From a virus: a stretch of DNA of 10,494 nt. Within the stretch, counting starts at the first letter, position 1. Each line of letters starts with the position of its first letter. The DNA lies in UHGV virus genome UHGV-1956501, one strand, 5' to 3'. Below are positions 651 to 9,828 of this stretch, piece after piece. The translations under genes were made by a program, and so were the position numbers. The notes beneath the pieces were generated by a model that saw only the letters and a program-made list of their open reading frames with translations, had not been told where the DNA came from and made no database searches.

Positions 651-1226
651 TTACTCCCCGCTGTCAATAGCAAGACTCATTGCAATACGGTATGCCTCTT
701 CTAATGGTAAGAGTCTCCCCCACACATCCCAACCGACATCAAACTGCCTGCCAAACAACTGCTGTGTGGTTCCGTGAGCATGACCGAACAGTTGGACTGA
801 TCCGTGAGGCTTTCTGTTCCACTTTGCAAACTGGTAATGGCTCATACAGATCAAATTCTTGTTGTGGCGAAGCTCGTAATAATCTACAACCTCATGACCG
901 AACTCTTTCATAATTCTGACAGTCGTCCTTGTGTCATGGTTGCCACGAACAAGAATAATATGCCCGTTCAACATATTTAGAATATCTGGAAGTAAGTTGT
1001 TGATATTCTTATCATTAGTGCACGCAATATCTCCCAGGTGGAACACAGTGTCTGCAGGTGACACAACAGAGTTCCACTCGGTGATGATTCCCGCATTCAT
1101 ACTGTCAAGATTGTGATCATATTGAGATCTGTGTTTTTGACATGAATCAAACTCCATGACCCGCTGTTGGAGAAAGTGTGTGTCGCTTGTTACAAAGTAT
1201 TTTAATGCAGATGACCTAGTAGACAA
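651..1226 (-). CDS. Calcineurin-like metallophosphoesterase
   Basis: Ordered metallophosphoesterase motifs in the translation: SDTHF (D-x-H), HLGDIA (GD), VRGNHD (GNHD), later His, FGHAHG (GH-x-H). Longest ORF starts at TTG (1224-1226) with no in-frame ATG before motif I, so the start codon is uncertain. Confidence 0.75.
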   Translation of the reverse strand: MSTRSSALKYFVTSDTHFLQQRVMEFDSCQKHRSQYDHNLDSMNAGIITEWNSVVSPADTVFHLGDIACTNDKNINNLLPDILNMLNGHIILVRGNHDTRTTVRIMKEFGHEVVDYYELRHNKNLICMSHYQFAKWNRKPHGSVQLFGHAHGTTQQLFGRQFDVGWDVWGRLLPLEEAYRIAMSLAIDSGE

Positions 1227-2106
1227 AGGTCTTGTAACCAGTCGGTATTATCCAGATCTTGGATTAAAGATCTATAAATATGCCAGAAAAGTATTCTACA
1301 ACAATCTGTGGCATTTGTCTCCGCGTTTACTGGAGTGCCGAGGTATTGTTGTTGGCAATGAGGGGAATGTTGTGGCATGGCCTTTCACAAAAGTATTCAA
1401 CTTAGGAGAAAACTCCACCAACCTACCGGACAGTAAACTTGTTACTGCGGTAGAGAAAAAGAACGGATTCCTTGGTGTGGTGTCATCTCATAAAGGTGAA
1501 CTATTGTTCTCAACAACCGGGTCTCTTGATTCTCCATATTGTAACCTTGCAAAGGAAACCATCCAGGAGCAATGTGGTAATTTAGATCTTATCAAGAAGG
1601 TTATGGGCAATGAAAATATGACATTCATGTTTGAAATTTGTCACCCCTCAGATCCGCATATTGTTCAGGAAGATCATGGCGCATATTTGATAGGTTGCAG
1701 ATATAATGATTCTGGAATAATACTACCAGAAGCAGCTTTAGATGGGATTGCCAAATACCTTGGTGCAAAACGTCCTCACACTGTGCGTGAAATTCCGTTC
1801 AGTTATGCAAAAGAATTAGCTGCAGAAACAAGAGGTGAAGGGTATATGATTCGTAAGCCTTACTACCCTTATGATCTGCAGCTGAAGATTAAGTCTCCAT
1901 ACTATCTGGCACGGAAGGCCGTAATGAGGGGTAAAGCTTGGAAGATTTGGGATGATGATATCTTTAAACGTGTTGACGAAGAGTTTTACGGCATGGTAAA
2001 CTTCATTCGCAACAACTACACAGAGGATGTATGGAACTGCCTCCTGGAGCAGGAACGCCGTGAGATACTTGACTACTATTTCCACAACGAGGACTATATG
2101 CAATGA
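1156..2106 (+). CDS. rnlA: ATP-dependent RNA ligase, T4 Rnl1 (RnlA)-like, with short C-terminal region
   Basis: Nucleotidyltransferase motifs: motif I K-x-N-G (EKKNGFLGVV), motif IV EGYMIRK, motif V LKIKSPYY. N-terminal segments KYFNADDL, LLECRGI and KVFNLGEN match the T4 Rnl1 N-terminus as recalled from memory. ATG 1156 overlaps the divergent phosphoesterase 5' end; GTG 1180 is an alternative start. Confidence 0.75.
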   Translation: MTRCWRKCVSLVTKYFNADDLVDKGLVTSRYYPDLGLKIYKYARKVFYNNLWHLSPRLLECRGIVVGNEGNVVAWPFTKVFNLGENSTNLPDSKLVTAVEKKNGFLGVVSSHKGELLFSTTGSLDSPYCNLAKETIQEQCGNLDLIKKVMGNENMTFMFEICHPSDPHIVQEDHGAYLIGCRYNDSGIILPEAALDGIAKYLGAKRPHTVREIPFSYAKELAAETRGEGYMIRKPYYPYDLQLKIKSPYYLARKAVMRGKAWKIWDDDIFKRVDEEFYGMVNFIRNNYTEDVWNCLLEQERREILDYYFHNEDYMQ

Positions 2107-2453
2107 AGAAGTTGATTGTGTGGCTGGATGACTTGAGAGACCCGTCAAATTATGGGCTCCCAGACGCTATTTGGCTAAAGAATTCCTCCGAGTTTATGGA
2201 TTTTATTAACGATAATAGAAAGCTCTACAGACGCGTTTCTGAGTGGCATATGGACAACGACCTTGGAGAGGTATTAGAAGGGTACGATTGCCTATCTATG
2301 TTGGAGGAAAAATTTGTATTTGGTAAGCCTCCTGTAGTTGACAACGTGAAGATTTTCGTGCATACTTCTAACCCATCAGCTGCTCGTAAATTCATGCTTG
2401 CAGCTGACTCGTTTAAAAAGTTTGGAATAGAGATTAAACAAAACATCTACTGA
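2103..2453 (+). CDS. Hypothetical protein (116 aa); possible CheY-like receiver / flavodoxin-like fold
   Basis: ATG overlaps the upstream stop (ATGA, 2103-2106), suggesting translational coupling. Acidic residues and a Thr/Lys pair at CheY-like spacing (D9 D10, D51/D53, T88, K105/K106); fold assignment is speculative. Confidence 0.6.
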   Translation: MKKLIVWLDDLRDPSNYGLPDAIWLKNSSEFMDFINDNRKLYRRVSEWHMDNDLGEVLEGYDCLSMLEEKFVFGKPPVVDNVKIFVHTSNPSAARKFMLAADSFKKFGIEIKQNIY

Positions 2454-2461
2454 GGACACTT

Positions 2462-3223
2462 ATGCGACGACTTATTATTATCTCCGGTGCTGGTTTGAGC
2501 GCTGAATCTGGTATTCCCACTTTCCGATCTGGTAGCACTGCAATGTGGGAGAATTTCAGCATCGATGAGGTGTGCAACATTCACACCTTTGCCAAGAACT
2601 ACTATAAGGTGCATGACTTTTACAATGCACGTCGTGTAGCTCTAGGCAGTGTTGAGCCTAACCTTGCACATCTTCGGATCGCTGAGTGGTATTCCCGCTG
2701 GTCTGGTCGTGTGATCAACATTACCACCAATGTGGATGATTTGCTGGAGCGTGCTGGTGTAAAACATGAAGATATTTTACATGTCCACGGGTATTTGCCA
2801 GAAATAGTCTATGAGGACGATGAAGGAAGTAACGTCATTAAGGACATTGGATACTCTGAGGTAGATGCAGAAAAGTATACCTGGGTTAAGCCTAATGTGG
2901 TGTTCTTCGGAGAAGTAGCTCCGAAGTATACAGACATGTACGACCTGTTGACTTCCCTTACGAGTAATGATATGGTTATCCTTGTAGGGTGTTCCAACAC
3001 AGTTATCAATTTTAACTGGGAGCTATTCCCTGCCTGCAATAAGGGAACCAAGCTGCTGATCGTTAACAAATACGACTCACAGCATCTAGAGGAGAATGGC
3101 ATTTCACGTAGTGATATTTACCAATATGAGGATCGCGGCATCCCAGTTTGGTTTAACGGGGCGGTTGATGCTTTCTCTGATAAAACATTCATTGAGACCG
3201 TAGAAAACTTTATGGAACTTTAA
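2462..3223 (+). CDS. Sir2-family protein (sirtuin-like NAD-dependent deacylase / ADP-ribosyltransferase / NADase), no zinc ribbon
   Basis: Sirtuin Rossmann motifs: ISGAGLSAESGIPTFRS (GAG-x-S-x-x-SGIP-x-FR), ITTNVDDL (TQN-x-D-x-L-like), LHVHG (catalytic His-Gly), VVFFGE (FGE), ILVGCSNTV. No CxxC...CxxC zinc-binding module is present. Confidence 0.85.
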   Translation: MRRLIIISGAGLSAESGIPTFRSGSTAMWENFSIDEVCNIHTFAKNYYKVHDFYNARRVALGSVEPNLAHLRIAEWYSRWSGRVINITTNVDDLLERAGVKHEDILHVHGYLPEIVYEDDEGSNVIKDIGYSEVDAEKYTWVKPNVVFFGEVAPKYTDMYDLLTSLTSNDMVILVGCSNTVINFNWELFPACNKGTKLLIVNKYDSQHLEENGISRSDIYQYEDRGIPVWFNGAVDAFSDKTFIETVENFMEL

Positions 3224-3236
3224 AAGGAGACCTTTA

Positions 3237-3950
3237 ATGCTGAATACCAAATTAATTGACAACCTGGAAAAACTGTCCCAACCTGAAAACTACCTTTGGT
3301 CTGCCAACTGGGTGGAAAACTGGAACCGTGTGGCAGCTAAAGTGAAAAAATCATACACACCATTCGAATTACAGCTTAGCTTCATTGAGGAAGAGTTCAA
3401 TGAAGTTTTGGAAGAGCTGGAGAAAGGTGATGGTGGAGATCACCTGCTAAAAGAGGCCTGCGATCTTCACGTTGTCACAAGTTATGCCGCTTATCTTGTT
3501 AATGATAATCACGAAAAGTGGTCAAACCTGTTTGATAATCCACGAGGCCTTAAGTTCAAGATCGGTGAGTTCTATGATACCCTGATCGCTGCGAAAAACA
3601 CCTCCAAGCAAAAAGCGTCCGCTTACCGCTTAGCAGAGTTGTCAACAGCTTTGCTGTTCCAGCTTCGCGGCGATGTGTGCGGGATGATGCGTAAGGTTCT
3701 CAAATCGAATGACAGCAAGTTTGCACGGGTCAACCATCTACGGTATTCACACGGTGCCAGTGCAGATATGCCTGCTGAACAACTCATCGAGTTGGAGATT
3801 AAAGATCTTGAGCGGCGCTTTGATGGTCGATATGAAGGTTTTGTTGCTAAGGAAGAATTCTACAACGGTAATAAAGTTATCATATTCCTTGACAGTAAAG
3901 GTAAGATCATGAAGCCTTCGAGCTTCAAGGATGTAACAGAGTATATTTAA
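3237..3950 (+). CDS. Hypothetical protein; possible all-alpha NTP pyrophosphohydrolase (MazG/HisE-like) N-terminal domain
   Basis: AGGAG Shine-Dalgarno (3225-3229) before ATG 3237. Acidic helix pattern SFIEEEFNEVLEELEKGDGGDHLLKEACDLHVV resembles the E-x-x-E...E-x-x-D metal-binding helices of MazG-like enzymes; assignment is tentative. Confidence 0.5.
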   Translation: MLNTKLIDNLEKLSQPENYLWSANWVENWNRVAAKVKKSYTPFELQLSFIEEEFNEVLEELEKGDGGDHLLKEACDLHVVTSYAAYLVNDNHEKWSNLFDNPRGLKFKIGEFYDTLIAAKNTSKQKASAYRLAELSTALLFQLRGDVCGMMRKVLKSNDSKFARVNHLRYSHGASADMPAEQLIELEIKDLERRFDGRYEGFVAKEEFYNGNKVIIFLDSKGKIMKPSSFKDVTEYI

Positions 3951-3956
3951 CAACAT

Positions 3957-3985
3957 AGCCGGGATTACCCGGCTTTACTTGTTGT
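3957..3985 (+). terminator. Putative rho-independent terminator
   Basis: GC-rich hairpin AGCCGGG-atta-CCCGGCT (7-bp stem, 4-nt loop, 3957-3974) followed by T-rich TTACTTGTTGT, directly after the 3237..3950 stop. Confidence 0.5.
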
Positions 3986-4013
3986 GGAAAGTATGCAAGT
4001 GAGGAAGATAGTT

Positions 4014-4322
4014 ATGTACAAGCACTCTAGAGATCTTGAAAACGATGCTGTGTTTGGGGATCAGATGAAAGAGTTGGTTAAACTCATAGGCAGGATAGAG
4101 GATAAGTTTGACACTAAAATCTACATCGACAGCAAAGTATTCAACCACAAAATATGGACAAATCTGTGTGTTGGACTACATGGAGATAAAGATGTGGTAA
4201 ATTTAGTTGTAATTAAGTTCATAGTGTGGCAGAATAAAACTATAAATTATTACGATCCACACCTACTTGTTTACCCGATAAAAGACCTATTAGATAAGGA
4301 GGACTGCAATGCCGTTATTTAA
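4014..4322 (+). CDS. Hypothetical protein
   Basis: Longest ORF starts at GTG 3984; in-frame ATGs at 3993 and 4014. ATG 4014 has the best Shine-Dalgarno (GAGGAAG, 4001-4007). No recognisable motifs. Confidence 0.45.
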   Translation: MYKHSRDLENDAVFGDQMKELVKLIGRIEDKFDTKIYIDSKVFNHKIWTNLCVGLHGDKDVVNLVVIKFIVWQNKTINYYDPHLLVYPIKDLLDKEDCNAVI

Positions 4323-4578
4323 TCTTGCTAAACCTGTAGAAGCACACCAGTTTGACGGAAGCTCTTCATCAGTATCTGATCTGCAACGGTGGATTGATAC
4401 AGGTGTGTTTACATCGTCACCTGTTCGGACCAGAGATCTTCGTCGCATGTGTGAGCTTGTAGAGCCGTTTGGTAACCTAGTCTTGTACCAGGGAGATTGG
4501 TTAGTTGACTTTATGGGAGACTGGTTGGTAATGAGTAAAGAAGAGATGTTTAAAATTTTTAAGGAAGAGGCCGAGTAA
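4309..4578 (+). CDS. Hypothetical protein (89 aa)
   Basis: Strong Shine-Dalgarno AAGGAGG (4296-4302) 6 nt before ATG 4309; stop overlaps the downstream start (TAATG). No recognisable motifs. Confidence 0.55.
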   Translation: MPLFNLAKPVEAHQFDGSSSSVSDLQRWIDTGVFTSSPVRTRDLRRMCELVEPFGNLVLYQGDWLVDFMGDWLVMSKEEMFKIFKEEAE

Positions 4579-5861
4579 TGCATCAAATCAAAACAACACT
4601 GTACGCACTGAATAAAGATGGCAGCTACCAACAGTGGAAAGTATTCACGGATGGTGATAAGGTTATCGTAGAGTTTGGCAAGCTTGATGGTAAACTGCAA
4701 TACAAAGAGACGATCTGCACACCTAAGAACGTTGGTCGCGCCAATGAAACTACAGCTGAGCAACAGGCCGAGCTGGAAGCGATCAGTAAGTGGGAAAAAC
4801 AGGTCCGACTTGGGTACGTGGAGAGTATGGAAGATTGTGAGCAAGGTGTTGATCTTCTACCCATGTTGGTGCATGACTACCTGAAGCGTGGCAAGGCACT
4901 TAAATTACCTTGCTGGATCTTGCGTAAGTTAGATGGCCTTCGTCTACTTGTTGTTTTCCAGAATGGTGAGCCTAAATTTATTTCCCGTGGTAATAAGTCC
5001 TACCCTATTCAAGGAAAGCTTCTGGAGCAACTTCGCTCTTTCCACCTAACCACCGGGATTAAACAGCTCGACGGAGAGCTCTATATTCATGGTCTTCCTC
5101 TGCAGAAAATAGTGTCTCTTGCTAAACGGTGGCGCACACAGGAAGAAATTCAGGCCGAGATCGATAAAGACTACAAGGCAGATAAAAAACGCCGTCAGGC
5201 TGCGATTAAGGCAGGTTTAGCAACATACAAAAACTTCAACAAGATGGACATTCCTGTTGATGTTGAGCCTGTTCGTGATGATTTGCGTTACGGAGGGTAC
5301 TGCAGCTACGATCTGGAGTATCACATTTTTGATATTCCTAGCGACAAGGTGTGGTGGGATCCAGAAACAGAGTCTGGACGCTGCAAGGATCTTATGGATG
5401 CAGAGGATACCGTTACCACTCTGATGCTTGACCATATCAAGGTTGTTGACGCAGAGCTTGCGTACACAGTTGATCATTGCGAAGAATCTGTTGGTATATT
5501 CATGTCCGAAGGATATGAAGGTACTATCATGCGTAATTTCTGCGGTAAATACGAGTACGGTCAGCGAACATCTGAAGCATTGAAATGGAAAAAGTTCAAC
5601 GACGCAGAGGTGAAAGTTATTGACGTTGAGAAAGATAAGAATGACGAAGGTGTTCTTATCTGTGTTGACAAGGAAGGTGTTGTTGTTAAAATGAAGATGA
5701 AAGGTACGCACGAGGAGCGTAGCTATGACAGGATGCAGGAAATGATCGGAAAGTTCGTCACCTTCAAATATCAAGCAAGGACAGAAGACAACAACTACCA
5801 ATTCCCTGTCGGTATCTGCGTCCGAAATGTTAACCCAGATACTTGGGAGGTTCTGGAATGA
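4578..5861 (+). CDS. ATP-dependent DNA ligase with about 115-aa N-terminal extension
   Basis: Covalent nucleotidyltransferase motifs in order: motif I ILRKLDGLRLLVV (K-x-D-G-x-R) with downstream ISRGNK, motif III LDGELYIHG, motif IV EGTIMRN, motif V LKWKKF, C-terminal OB-like region. ATG overlaps upstream stop (TAATG). Confidence 0.8.
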   Translation: MHQIKTTLYALNKDGSYQQWKVFTDGDKVIVEFGKLDGKLQYKETICTPKNVGRANETTAEQQAELEAISKWEKQVRLGYVESMEDCEQGVDLLPMLVHDYLKRGKALKLPCWILRKLDGLRLLVVFQNGEPKFISRGNKSYPIQGKLLEQLRSFHLTTGIKQLDGELYIHGLPLQKIVSLAKRWRTQEEIQAEIDKDYKADKKRRQAAIKAGLATYKNFNKMDIPVDVEPVRDDLRYGGYCSYDLEYHIFDIPSDKVWWDPETESGRCKDLMDAEDTVTTLMLDHIKVVDAELAYTVDHCEESVGIFMSEGYEGTIMRNFCGKYEYGQRTSEALKWKKFNDAEVKVIDVEKDKNDEGVLICVDKEGVVVKMKMKGTHEERSYDRMQEMIGKFVTFKYQARTEDNNYQFPVGICVRNVNPDTWEVLE

Positions 5862-5987: not shown

Positions 5988-6485
5988 ATGAAACTTGATA
6001 AAAATGTTCAACGAAAAGCTTTCTTGGATCTTATTGGCTGGGCAGAGGGAACAACAACCCCCCCTGCCACCAAATGTGGAGGATACGATGTTGTAGCATA
6101 CGGGATGGACGGAAAACCTGAAATCTTTACAGATTTTTCTACGCACCCTTTTGCAAACGGTCGCCCTGGTAAAGTGTTTAACTCAAAAGGGCAAAGAACT
6201 ACAGCCTGCGGTAAATATCAATTTCTTGTCAAATACTGGGAACACTACAAAAAACAGCTTAAGTTGCCGGATTTTGGACCAGACAGTCAGGATAAGTGGG
6301 CGATCCAGTTGATCAGGGAACGTAAAGCACTTGAAGATATAGATAACGGTCATATTAAATCTGCTATACGTAAGACCTCAAATATTTGGGCTTCGTTCCC
6401 CTACAACCAGTACGACCAAAATCCAAAAACCATTGACAAGTTGCTTAAGAAATTTGTAGAGTTTGGAGGTGTTGTTCTGGATTAA
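5988..6485 (+). CDS. Endolysin, lambda R-type lytic transglycosylase
   Basis: Near-collinear matches to lambda R as recalled: QRKAFLD, GWAEGT, GYDV, FTDFS-HP, GKYQF, YWEHYKKQLKLPDFGPDSQD, IRERKAL, SNIWASFP, FGG. GGAGA Shine-Dalgarno 8 nt before ATG. Confidence 0.9.
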   Translation: MKLDKNVQRKAFLDLIGWAEGTTTPPATKCGGYDVVAYGMDGKPEIFTDFSTHPFANGRPGKVFNSKGQRTTACGKYQFLVKYWEHYKKQLKLPDFGPDSQDKWAIQLIRERKALEDIDNGHIKSAIRKTSNIWASFPYNQYDQNPKTIDKLLKKFVEFGGVVLD

Positions 6486-7580: not shown

Positions 7581-8045
7581 GTGGAAGACGGACGTTTAAT
7601 GAAGTCTGAACGCAGGCTTATTGTGCAACTGATCCCAGAAACAGCTTGGTATAATAACCTCCGAAACGCTGTAAAGAAGAGTGAGTGGGATAAGATCCGC
7701 AAGAAGTGCTATAAAGAAGCCAACTACACCTGTGAGGTGTGCGGCGGTAAAGGCAGCAAACACCCAGTGGAGTGTCATGAACTTTACACTTTCGAAGAGG
7801 GAGTGATCCGGCTTGTCGGACTGATAGCGTTGTGCCCAGATTGTCACACATCTGTGCATCCTGGGTTAGCAAATATCCGTGGAAAGTATGCTCAGGCAGT
7901 TAGTCAGTTGGCTAAGGTGAATAAGATCACCAAGGGTATGGCAGAGGCGTATTACCGAGACTGCTTTGCAGAGTGGCGTGAGCTTAGTAAAGTTCCAGAA
8001 TGGAAGACTGACTTTTCGTGGATAGAGGGTTACCTTGATGGCTAA
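7581..8045 (+). CDS. Zinc-binding His-Me-finger (HNH / EndoVII / NinG-like) protein, putative nuclease
   Basis: AGGAGG Shine-Dalgarno (7571-7576) 4 nt before GTG 7581. Motif CEVCGG-x6-HPVECHE-x-LCPDCH-x-x-x-H resembles the CxxC...H...CxxC-H arrangement of beta-beta-alpha-Me nucleases. Nuclease activity is inferred. Confidence 0.55.
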   Translation: MEDGRLMKSERRLIVQLIPETAWYNNLRNAVKKSEWDKIRKKCYKEANYTCEVCGGKGSKHPVECHELYTFEEGVIRLVGLIALCPDCHTSVHPGLANIRGKYAQAVSQLAKVNKITKGMAEAYYRDCFAEWRELSKVPEWKTDFSWIEGYLDG

Positions 8046-8387: not shown

Positions 8388-8696
8388 ATGCTTAAAATTT
8401 TTATTGTTGAAGATAAAGATATTGTCCAGTTGTATGCAAACGAGAATCATAAAGGTATGATTCTGAAGAAGGCAAGCAACCTTCATGAAAACACAATTCA
8501 ACCTGGCGATGTAATTAAGATCTGTGGTTATATGATATCAGACTCCTTGATGAAAATAACCCACCACTGGGGGTCTAATCCGTTCCTTTTTGAAAAGTAT
8601 TGGGATGTTGAGTCACTTATTGCAGAGAGTGATGATGCATTCCATTACAGCATCCAACCATCTTGCAGAATAACTAACAGGAGGGTCTTTGAGTAG
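8388..8696 (+). CDS. Hypothetical protein (102 aa), first gene after the strong promoter
   Basis: ATG with good Shine-Dalgarno spacing (8 nt) directly downstream of the consensus promoter. No motifs recognised. Confidence 0.6.
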   Translation: MLKIFIVEDKDIVQLYANENHKGMILKKASNLHENTIQPGDVIKICGYMISDSLMKITHHWGSNPFLFEKYWDVESLIAESDDAFHYSIQPSCRITNRRVFE

Positions 8697-9828
8697 AGAA
8701 TATCCACTTATTGAGTCCATAGATTGTCTGGCTGATCTTCTTGAACCTGACGCTATAGTTTATTATGACTTCGATCAGGTTGCATATCAAGCTGCAGCAA
8801 GTTGTGAAAAAAGGACAATTGAGGTAACACACAAAGCCTCCGGACGTAAGAAGATGTTTAAAACACGAACAGAGTTCTGGGGTCGGCAGAAGAACACCGT
8901 TGGTGGTTGGTTAAAAGCTGAGAATACCAACCGTGAAGCCGCATGTAAAAAGTCTGGTAAGGAGTTTATTCCGTGGACACGTGAAGATTTTGATGTCTTG
9001 GATATCCAAACACCTGACCCTGTAGAGAACTGCTTGCACACAATAAAATGTAAGGCAAATGCAGTTCTTAACTATCTTGGTATTCCGGAAGAGCGATGTG
9101 TCGGGGTGTTGGGAGGAACAGGTAACTTCAGACTAGATCTTCCAATGCCGGAAAGATACAAAGCCAACCGTAACAATACCCTTCGACCACTGCTGCTTGG
9201 AGATGCAAGACAGTATCTCCAAAAGCAGTATAATGCTCAAGTGATCAACGGTATCGAGGCTGACGACTGGTTAGCTATCCAGCAATTTGAAGGTTGGAAC
9301 CACTACCAAAAAACAGGTAAGTTCAACAAGTTTATTATCTCTATTGATAAGGACCAAAGAACACTGCCGGGGCTTGTGTTCGATCCCATGCGAAACGATA
9401 AGGGAGATTTTGTAAGGGAAACCCCTATGCTGATCGATAACGGTATGGGGAACATCTTCATGAAGCCTAATGGAGAGGTTGGTGGTTACGGAATGCTGTT
9501 CTTCGGATACCAAATGCTGTGTGGTGACTCTGCCGACAATATCAAGCCGTATCAAGGACTTATCGGTAAGGGTAAGTTCGGGGATGCCTCAGCATTCTAC
9601 CTACTGTCTCAGTGCAGCACTCCAAAGGAGATGTGGGTGGCTATTATTGATCAGTACAAGAAGTGGTTCCCGAAAGGTGTTGTTAAGTATACTGACTTCA
9701 ATGGTGTTGATCGTAGAATTTCCGTAGGTCAATGGATGAGTATAATTTTTGACTGTTTGTATATGAAGCGAACATTCAATGATCAAACAAAACTTGTTAA
9801 CGTTCTTAGAAATGTTGGAGCAATTTGA
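8689..9828 (+). CDS. rnh: FEN-family 5'-3' exonuclease / T4 RNase H-like nuclease
   Basis: N-terminal YYDFDQVAY (compare T4 RNase H LIDFSQIAL), GIEADDWLAI (compare EADDHIAV in T4 RNase H and EADDMAAY in T5 D15), and GDSADNIKPYQGLIGKG (compare GD-x-x-DNI...GIG-x-K helix-hairpin-helix motif). Comparisons are from memory. Start is TTG 8689, 4 nt after AGGAGG (8679-8684). At 379 aa it is longer than T4 RNase H. Confidence 0.7.
   Translation: MSREYPLIESIDCLADLLEPDAIVYYDFDQVAYQAAASCEKRTIEVTHKASGRKKMFKTRTEFWGRQKNTVGGWLKAENTNREAACKKSGKEFIPWTREDFDVLDIQTPDPVENCLHTIKCKANAVLNYLGIPEERCVGVLGGTGNFRLDLPMPERYKANRNNTLRPLLLGDARQYLQKQYNAQVINGIEADDWLAIQQFEGWNHYQKTGKFNKFIISIDKDQRTLPGLVFDPMRNDKGDFVRETPMLIDNGMGNIFMKPNGEVGGYGMLFFGYQMLCGDSADNIKPYQGLIGKGKFGDASAFYLLSQCSTPKEMWVAIIDQYKKWFPKGVVKYTDFNGVDRRISVGQWMSIIFDCLYMKRTFNDQTKLVNVLRNVGAI

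Follow-up and report, generated by a model that had tools for sequence, protein, structure and literature searches.

The window analysed here, a stretch of 10,494 nucleotides from virus genome UHGV-1956501, carries at positions 3237-3950 of the plus strand an open reading frame (ORF; ATG 3237, TAA 3948-3950) whose 237-residue product is a homologue of phage rV5 gp081. This protein belongs to the superfamily of all-alpha nucleoside triphosphate pyrophosphohydrolases (NTP-PPases) that comprises MazG, HisE and the dimeric dUTPases (Moroz et al. 2005), falls by profile outside the curated families, and represents a phage-specific family of about 230 residues, an uncharacterised member or subfamily of this superfamily. 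It combines an architecture resembling that of the dimeric dUTPases with sequence motifs resembling those of MazG and HisE. The enzyme class, a Mg2+/Mn2+-dependent all-alpha NTP-PPase, is assigned with high confidence. The role that we favour, and hold to be reasonably probable, is that of a Mg2+/Mn2+-dependent (d)NTP pyrophosphohydrolase conditioning the deoxynucleoside triphosphate (dNTP) pool for phage DNA replication. Nothing is overturned by this assignment, since the superfamily was already recognised in GenBank ("nucleotide pyrophosphohydrolase") and by Iyer et al. (2022), who refer to the MazG superfamily. New here are the dimeric-dUTPase-like architecture, a C-terminal K-x-x-K-P module, and a conserved genomic linkage with DNA ligase and dNTP genes, not with Sir2.

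A well-conserved phage gene

The ORF is a real and well-conserved gene of an rV5-like Escherichia coli phage. Searches with tblastn revealed its product in 298 phage records, 121 of them at 95% identity or more and 177 below 60%; among the latter, the matches listed were 29-36% identical and came from other Vequintavirinae and related phages. In an exhaustive profile search with hidden Markov models, 163 clusters (formed at 50% identity) were retrieved; with few exceptions their proteins measure 200-270 residues and match from end to end. With this many records and clusters, a chance ORF can be dismissed. Two long matches of the representative search (P0105 and P0140) were discarded as repeat-protein artefacts, and no Pfam domain accounted for the extra length of P0085 (374 residues).

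The names given to these proteins vary. The identical protein in NCBI (UWG72843.1) is designated "phosphoribosyl-ATP pyrophosphohydrolase", and orthologues appear as "nucleotide pyrophosphohydrolase", "hypothetical protein" or, wrongly, "Sir2-like protein". The label "putative Sir2-like protein" is found in GenBank and UniProt records including H18, H29, H31, BFVD A0A7H0XDZ2 and UniRef entries. A Sir2-like identity was rejected, as the 237-residue protein has no similarity to Sir2, and the label probably slipped from the upstream gene during annotation transfer.

Sequence and fold evidence for the enzyme class

A first-pass annotation, made from the DNA letters, had proposed an all-alpha NTP pyrophosphatase on the basis of an acidic helix pair, and this proposal was borne out. 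Both strings of the pair are present (EEEFNEVLEELEKGD at residues 51-65 and KEACDLHVV at residues 72-80), and the protein matched the "nucleotide pyrophosphohydrolase" family PHROG 671 at 6e-22. An AlphaFold model built from 86 sequences, with a predicted local distance difference test (pLDDT) score of 94.9, resembles all-alpha NTP pyrophosphohydrolases. It displays the four-helix all-alpha core of the superfamily and carries the acidic residues of the ExxE...ExxD pattern on two adjacent helices (E52-E53-x-x-E56 and E73-x-x-D76). An earlier AF2 model, for which 17 close homologues were used, had reached a pLDDT of 76 (45-51 for the remaining four) and was superseded by this one. In the Big Fantastic Virus Database (BFVD), a structural match was found with a 471-residue mimivirus protein named thymidine kinase.

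The family alignment comprised 86 members, whose Pfam matches were counted at E <=0.01. PRA-PH was matched by 59 of them and MazG by 19, which, on sequence grounds, shows homology at the level of the superfamily and not membership of either family. When the family profile was compared with the PDB, it matched HisE (1yvw, E 0.003) and MazG (3crc, E 0.024), with exactly the EExxE...D acidic helices aligned; a PDB sequence search with the single protein gave no match even at E <=10. The NCBIfam candidates for the protein (PIN and DinD, E >0.02) were noise and were set aside.

The putative active site is strongly conserved. E53, D76, N158, K161, K223 and K226 are invariant in the 86-member alignment, E52 and E56 occur in 84 members, and N30 and V79 are also conserved at 90% or more. 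Every one of the 86 members carries an acidic residue at either position 72 or position 73 (E73 in this protein), and P227 is retained in 83.

Architecture of the family

The protein had initially been described as a minimal MazG domain with a long C-terminal extension, a description that has to be revised. The dimeric-dUTPase-like core reaches residue ~163 and includes a fourth helix with the invariant N158 and K161, so that the catalytic domain spans ~163 residues and the extension only ~70-74 (residues ~164-237), the latter being itself a conserved module. Nor is the C-terminal half devoid of recognisable motifs, as had been stated: positions with at least 70% identity number 18 there versus 17 in the N-terminal half, and the motifs N158/K161, GRY and GKIMKP all lie within it. 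The fourth helix exhibits the family motif S-N158-x-S-K161-F/Y-P. To judge by the shared N-x-x-basic spacing, N158 and K161 would correspond to N158 and R161 in motif V of the phiDI Dut, an enzyme that holds the deoxyribose by this Asn and a phosphate by this Arg (PMC5608427).

The C-terminal module begins with a weakly conserved linker and helix (residues 164-196, helix 180-195), followed by residues 197-231, which include G197-R198-Y199, a beta-hairpin (203-218) and the tail G222-K223-I-M-K226-P227-S-S-F230. Across the family, the tail takes the form G-K223-I-M-K226-P227-x-T/S-F/Y; the GKIMKP motif is encoded by nucleotides 3900-3917. The module is modelled at a pLDDT of 91-98, and no Pfam or PDB sequence match covers it. 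Since large dimeric Duts make phosphate contacts with their C-terminal portion (PMC5608427), we infer by analogy that the module may act as a lysine-bearing lid over the phosphates of the substrate. In a non-significant HMMER local alignment (score -0.4), residues 213-226 ("vFrDdkGKImK", nucleotides 3873-3914) were aligned with YLFSKGEDKILK, residues 25-38 of Bacillus cereus HisE (1yvw); this HisE segment is N-terminal and precedes the EE helix. The likeness may reflect a convergent or circularly displaced phosphate-binding element, or chance.

The least conserved segment is the insert between the third and fourth core helices (residues 88-146; helices 92-97, 109-119 and 122-142 in the model), with 0.94 bits per position and not a single position reaching 70% identity. 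It varies as does the "motif VI" of staphylococcal phage dimeric Duts (PMC5608427), the nearest structural neighbours, and these enzymes also have a second function in derepressing Stl. The phage protein might thus act mainly as a regulatory or structural protein-binding partner, with catalysis secondary. All putative catalytic residues are, however, invariant or nearly so in 86 diverse members, which argues for selection on catalysis, and no partner is known; such a role appears extremely improbable.

Proposed role in the dNTP pool

The reaction expected of the favoured dNTP-pool enzyme is a divalent-metal-dependent hydrolysis of NTP to the monophosphate and pyrophosphate (NTP -> NMP + PPi). 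The acidic cluster formed by E52/E53, E56, E73 and D76 on helices 2 and 3 would hold Mg2+/Mn2+ and the attacking water, and N30 and Q46 (helices 1 and 2) together with V79 (helix 3) would form the wall of the pocket for base and sugar. On the fourth core helix, N158 and K161 are predicted to contact the sugar and the phosphate. K223 and K226 of the C-terminal tail would then close over the phosphates, probably within a dimer by analogy with the dimeric dUTPases. Candidate substrates are dUTP, dCTP or non-canonical dNTPs, which would be kept out of DNA, making the enzyme dUTPase-like, dCTPase-like or a house-cleaning one. A deoxynucleoside monophosphate (dNMP) product such as dUMP could possibly feed the phage ThyX. 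The near-invariance of N30, Q46, V79 and N158 across phages of very different contexts suggests one common substrate and not clade-specific ones.

Genomic neighbourhoods were compared at 36 loci with a family member, several of them redundant or truncated. Part of these loci were found by means of a degenerate DNA pattern for F-x-D-x-x-G-K-I-M-K-P (23 loci); locus L037, retrieved with this pattern, was a chance match without a family gene and was rejected. A DNA ligase gene lies within ~2 kb of the family gene in 25 of the 36 loci, and a 5'-3' exonuclease gene is usually found downstream. Outside the Vequintavirinae, the neighbours include genes for a dNMP kinase (L008, L009), ThyX (L008, L011, L018), and ribonucleotide reductase and glutaredoxin (L011), and in Pseudomonas phage pf16 (L019) the family gene is located between 7-deazaguanine synthesis genes and the DNA polymerase gene. 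A role in the dNTP pool is supported by this adjacency of distant members to dNMP kinase, ThyX, ribonucleotide reductase and DNA polymerase. Phage JES2013, a close relative, has genes for ThyX, for glutaredoxin and for both the aerobic and the anaerobic ribonucleotide reductase. Its annotation contains no dUTPase, tblastn with E. coli Dut (an approximate query) gave no match in its genome, and the family is present there in a single copy; neither a trimeric dUTPase nor a second all-alpha PPase was found.

Several neighbourhoods have features of their own. The pf16 member, gp76 (L019 5971-6660), comes last in a cluster that also includes QueD, QueC and two GTP cyclohydrolase genes; beyond it lie a terminator and the DNA polymerase gene. 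For Cellulophaga phage phiST, the five genes between those of the deazaguanine pathway and those of the polymerase are reported to include a dUTPase/MazG-like one (PMC10516641). In the metagenomic phage contig L009 (8278-10728), the family gene is directly preceded by that of the dNMP kinase, and genes for PRPP-synthetase-like and NAMPT-like proteins lie two genes downstream. This last pair resembles a phage NAD+ (nicotinamide adenine dinucleotide) reconstitution pathway.

Several results weigh against the dNTP-pool role. The 237-residue protein alone scored 13.9 bits against PRA-PH (E 0.074, cut-off 21.3 bits) and had no match in a Pfam scan for MazG. None of the 86 family members matched the dimeric dUTPase profile PF08761 at E <=0.01, whereas the positive controls phiNM1 Dut (9e-19) and T4 gp56 (2e-5) did, and hhalign comparisons with staphylococcal phage dimeric Duts and T4 gp56 were not significant, with only the acidic helices aligned. 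The host supplies a Dut anyway, and adjacency to replication genes may reflect no more than a shared early or middle gene block. Literature searches found no experimental characterisation of any family member, only a comparative-genomics mention. The gene forms part of a predicted Sir2 RNA-repair cluster in the rV5 lineage (PMC9503650). Finally, specificity for dUTP is without motif support, because V79-V80 replace the His(or Ala)-Phe pair that in dimeric dUTPases follows the ExxD motif at D+3/D+4, sandwiches the deoxyribose and selects uracil (PMC5608427); position 79 is Val in 83 of the 86 members, and position 80 is Val in 68 and Thr in 18.

The Sir2 neighbourhood and other possible roles

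The embedding in a Sir2 cluster is the basis of a different proposal. Iyer, Burroughs, Anantharaman and Aravind (2022) described a sirtuin-centred neighbourhood of phage V5, for which NAD+-dependent RNA repair was proposed, and section 3.7.3 of their study gives exactly this neighbourhood, including "a MazG superfamily pyrophosphatase" (PMC9503650). As an accessory enzyme of such a module, the protein would cleave the pyrophosphate of ADPr>P or ADPr-phosphate (ADPr, ADP-ribose), taking the place held by Nudix in the jumbo-phage version, with Sir2 acting like KptA/Tpt1 on 2'-phosphate RNA ends; another option would be the processing of a nucleotide cofactor used by the RNA ligase. In the window, genes for an Rnl1-type RNA ligase, a cREC domain protein and Sir2 indeed precede the gene on the same strand, with a metallophosphoesterase gene upstream, and an ADP-X substrate is chemically conceivable, given that dimeric dUTPases can use diphosphates, dUDP for example, as well (PMC5608427).

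The wider distribution of the family speaks against this proposal, and also against the Sir2-linked function suggested in the first-pass annotation. Sir2 was found within 3 kb of the family gene in only 10 of the 36 loci, and Sir2 is missing from at least 9 loci in which the DNA ligase and the family gene are both present and the sequence reaches more than 3 kb upstream. In relatives with 55% identity (contigs of 130-140 kb), the 10 kb upstream contain neither Sir2 nor an RNA ligase nor cREC, yet the DNA ligase, the family gene and the exonuclease are retained. In PVP-SE1-type genomes, the family gene is found three genes after Sir2, on the far side of the DNA ligase gene. Sir2 adjacency is thus specific to the rV5 lineage and some Vequintavirinae; the conserved linkage is with DNA ligase in rV5 relatives and with dNTP and replication genes in other phages, where the distant members found beside dNMP kinase, ThyX, ribonucleotide reductase or DNA polymerase weigh against RNA repair as well. 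Moreover, no specific step was given to the pyrophosphatase in PMC9503650. Taken together, we consider an accessory function in RNA repair unlikely. Less likely still is a more specific form of it, in which the protein would be a non-Nudix pyrophosphatase of ADP-ribose derivatives, its lysine tail binding the extra phosphate of ADPr-1''/2''-phosphate or ADPr>P produced by a KptA-like phage sirtuin; if true, this would complete a new NAD+-dependent tRNA-repair pathway. A milder reading of comparable novelty, also unlikely, is that of a third architectural class of dUTPase/dCTPase that would replace Dut in ThyX phages.

A third possibility is counter-defence by depletion of host signalling nucleotides, be it (p)ppGpp, cyclic (oligo)nucleotides or another second messenger of immunity. 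There is general precedent for phage anti-defence enzymes that degrade nucleotides, and the gene is located in an early or middle block. On the other hand, PADLOC gave no match, the neighbours are replication and dNTP genes and not known anti-defence genes, and the chemistry of all-alpha NTP-PPases acts on the alpha-beta bond of linear (d)NTPs. Cyanophage MazG is also reportedly incapable of hydrolysing magic-spot nucleotides, to go by the title of Rihtman et al. The depletion of alarmones or signalling nucleotides, which had been raised at the outset, finds nothing specific in its support, and a counter-defence role seems very improbable.

If conditioning of the dNTP pool is indeed the role, rV5-like phages and many other large ones encode a dNTP-pool "sanitiser" whose architecture is distinct: the core resembles that of the dimeric dUTPases, the metal motifs are of the MazG/HisE type, and the C-terminal module is conserved and bears lysines. 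A known substrate would settle the inconsistent naming of these proteins (hypothetical, nucleotide pyrophosphohydrolase, phosphoribosyl-ATP pyrophosphohydrolase or Sir2-like), place the gene either in the Sir2 RNA-repair system or in replication, and give the all-alpha NTP-PPase superfamily a further branch with defined biochemistry.

Organisation of the window

Vequintavirus genomes, such as those of Shigella phage CM1 and E. coli phages rV5/V5 and JES2013, match the 10.5-kb window over its full length at 95-97% identity. The same range of identity was found with 20 records deposited as "Campylobacter phage" (MG0656xx), a host label that looks doubtful for a Vequintavirus sequence. The features of the window are listed in Table 1.

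Table 1. Features of the 10,494-nucleotide window, including the subdivisions of the pyrophosphohydrolase gene (aa, amino acids; CDS, coding sequence; nt, nucleotides)
Feature	Position	Strand	Basis or remark
Metallophosphoesterase (calcineurin-like)	651-1226	-	
Rnl1-type RNA ligase (PF09511)	1156-2106	+	
cREC domain protein (PF20274, 1.3e-14)	2103-2453	+	
Sir2 (PF02146, 1e-27)	2462-3223	+	directly upstream of the pyrophosphohydrolase ORF
Ribosome-binding site AAGGAG	3224-3229	+	7 nt 5' of ATG, read from sequence
CDS, 237 aa, rV5 gp081 homologue, all-alpha nucleotide pyrophosphohydrolase family	3237-3950	+	
Core helices 1-3, aa 20-87: W29-N30 helix; Q46, E52-E53-x-x-E56; E73-x-x-D76-x-x-V79	3294-3497	+	model secondary structure, conservation
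Variable helical insert, aa 88-146, at the position of staphylococcal phage dimeric dUTPase "motif VI"	3498-3674	+	conservation, model
Fourth core helix, aa 147-163: S157-N158-D-S160-K161-F162	3675-3725	+	N158 and K161 invariant
Family-specific C-terminal module, aa 164-237	3726-3947	+	conservation, model
GC-rich hairpin AGCCGGG-ATTA-CCCGGCT, candidate intrinsic terminator	3957-3974	+	terminator-like scan, RNA fold
Two small unknown proteins	3984-4322 and 4309-4578	+	
ATP-dependent DNA ligase	4578-5861	+	
Endolysin	5988-6485	+	relatives' annotation; no Pfam match
AP2-domain ORF, 253 aa	6540-7301	+	weak match, E 2.5e-4
HNH protein	7581-8045	+	relatives' annotation; no Pfam match
5'-3' exonuclease	8689-9828	+	

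The gene had been regarded as closing an operon after Sir2 and before a terminator. The position of Sir2 directly upstream and the GC-rich hairpin 3' of the stop codon (7 bp stem, dG -17.6 kcal/mol, z -4.8) were both found; its place as the last gene of an operon is plausible only, since same-strand genes resume 40-60 nt past the hairpin, whose tail (UUUACUUGUUG) is moderately U-rich at best, with a weak U-tract. In related phages, a terminator is annotated 3' of the pf16 homologue and a promoter 3' of the PVP-SE1 homologue. For the first small gene beyond the hairpin, the mechanical start is GTG 3984 and the JES2013 annotation corresponds to ATG 3993, while its match to PHROG 7684 covers the protein from residue 11 on, in agreement with ATG 4014, which has GAGGA before it. 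The start is probably 3993 or 4014, 40-60 nt past the hairpin.

Further downstream, the AP2 ORF is located between the endolysin gene and a 68-residue gene. Some near-identical contigs have it (L044), and it is absent from others (L045, L046, JES2013). This ORF looks like that of a homing endonuclease; such a patchy presence is typical of mobile endonuclease genes.

Upstream, the window displays a deletion of 553 bp relative to rV5, JES2013, CM1 and every other listed relative, with a junction at 1195-1202 and an 8-nt microhomology (AAGTATTT). The deletion removes the whole AAA_33 nucleotide-kinase gene (JES2013 ORF75) and the divergent promoter region. The metallophosphoesterase gene (native MKYFVTSDTHF) has thereby lost its ATG, and the RNA ligase gene (native MMKYFNADD) its first codons. 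As now found, the ORFs 651-1226 (-) and 1156-2106 (+) share 71 nt, and the 5' end of each is chimeric. A metagenome scaffold, ENA ERZ28603063 scaffold_840 (L047), has this junction too, with 100% identity to the window over 4,905 nt, and it was absent from IMG/VR when searched there. Past window position 4921, L047 continues with unrelated sequence (4906-5272) and is chimeric, so that the assembly is unreliable at least at its far end, which, judged by eye, looks like a bacterial MetQ/NlpA-type lipoprotein gene.

Comparison with known systems

Among characterised families, the closest architecture is that of the dimeric dUTPases (phiDI Dut 5MYD, Campylobacter jejuni 1W2Y, Leishmania major 2YAY; PF08761). 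The phage protein shares with them the same order of helices (base/sugar helix, ExxE, ExxD, insert and last helix) and an Asn in the last helix followed three residues on by a basic residue (N158/R161 in phiDI, N158/K161 here); the overall dimeric-dUTPase architecture of core helices, insert and last helix is thus present. It differs from them by its MazG/HisE-style EExxE metal motif, and phiDI Dut has no counterpart of its C-terminal beta-hairpin and K-x-x-K-P tail. MazG and HisE (PF03819 and PF01503; E. coli MazG 3CRA/3CRC, B. cereus HisE 1YVW) have in common with it the EExxE...ExxD helix pair, the sole part detectable by sequence. Their domains measure ~90-115 residues, in contrast to 237 here with a 59-residue insert and a 74-residue C-terminal module, and their structural similarity to the phage protein is clearly below that of the dimeric dUTPases.

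The V5 neighbourhood of PMC9503650 is a genomic parallel. Its type 2 is defined by the co-location of sirtuin, T4-like RNA ligase, cREC and nucleotide kinase, a calcineurin-like phosphoesterase being optional; the V5 orthologue is the "MazG superfamily pyrophosphatase" of the V5 neighbourhood, and the window has the RNA ligase, cREC, Sir2 and calcineurin-like phosphoesterase genes, but the nucleotide-kinase member has been deleted from it. With respect to the proposed role, the closest analogue is T4 gp56 (dCTPase/dUTPase), a phage all-alpha d(C/U)TP pyrophosphatase which, according to the T4 annotation, edits the dNTP pool and feeds dNMP to a pyrimidine-modifying enzyme; in both proteins, a Gln is located a few residues before the acidic motif. 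Unlike the family described here, gp56 is 170 residues long and matches PF08761, and its hhalign probability with the family is 1.3%. Nor are rV5-like phages known to exclude cytosine from their DNA. Another parallel is offered by MazZ of cyanophage S-2L (PDB 7ODY), also a MazG-like phage enzyme, which reshapes the dNTP pool beside DNA-modification genes; the pf16 homologue has a parallel location, next to the 7-deazaguanine genes.

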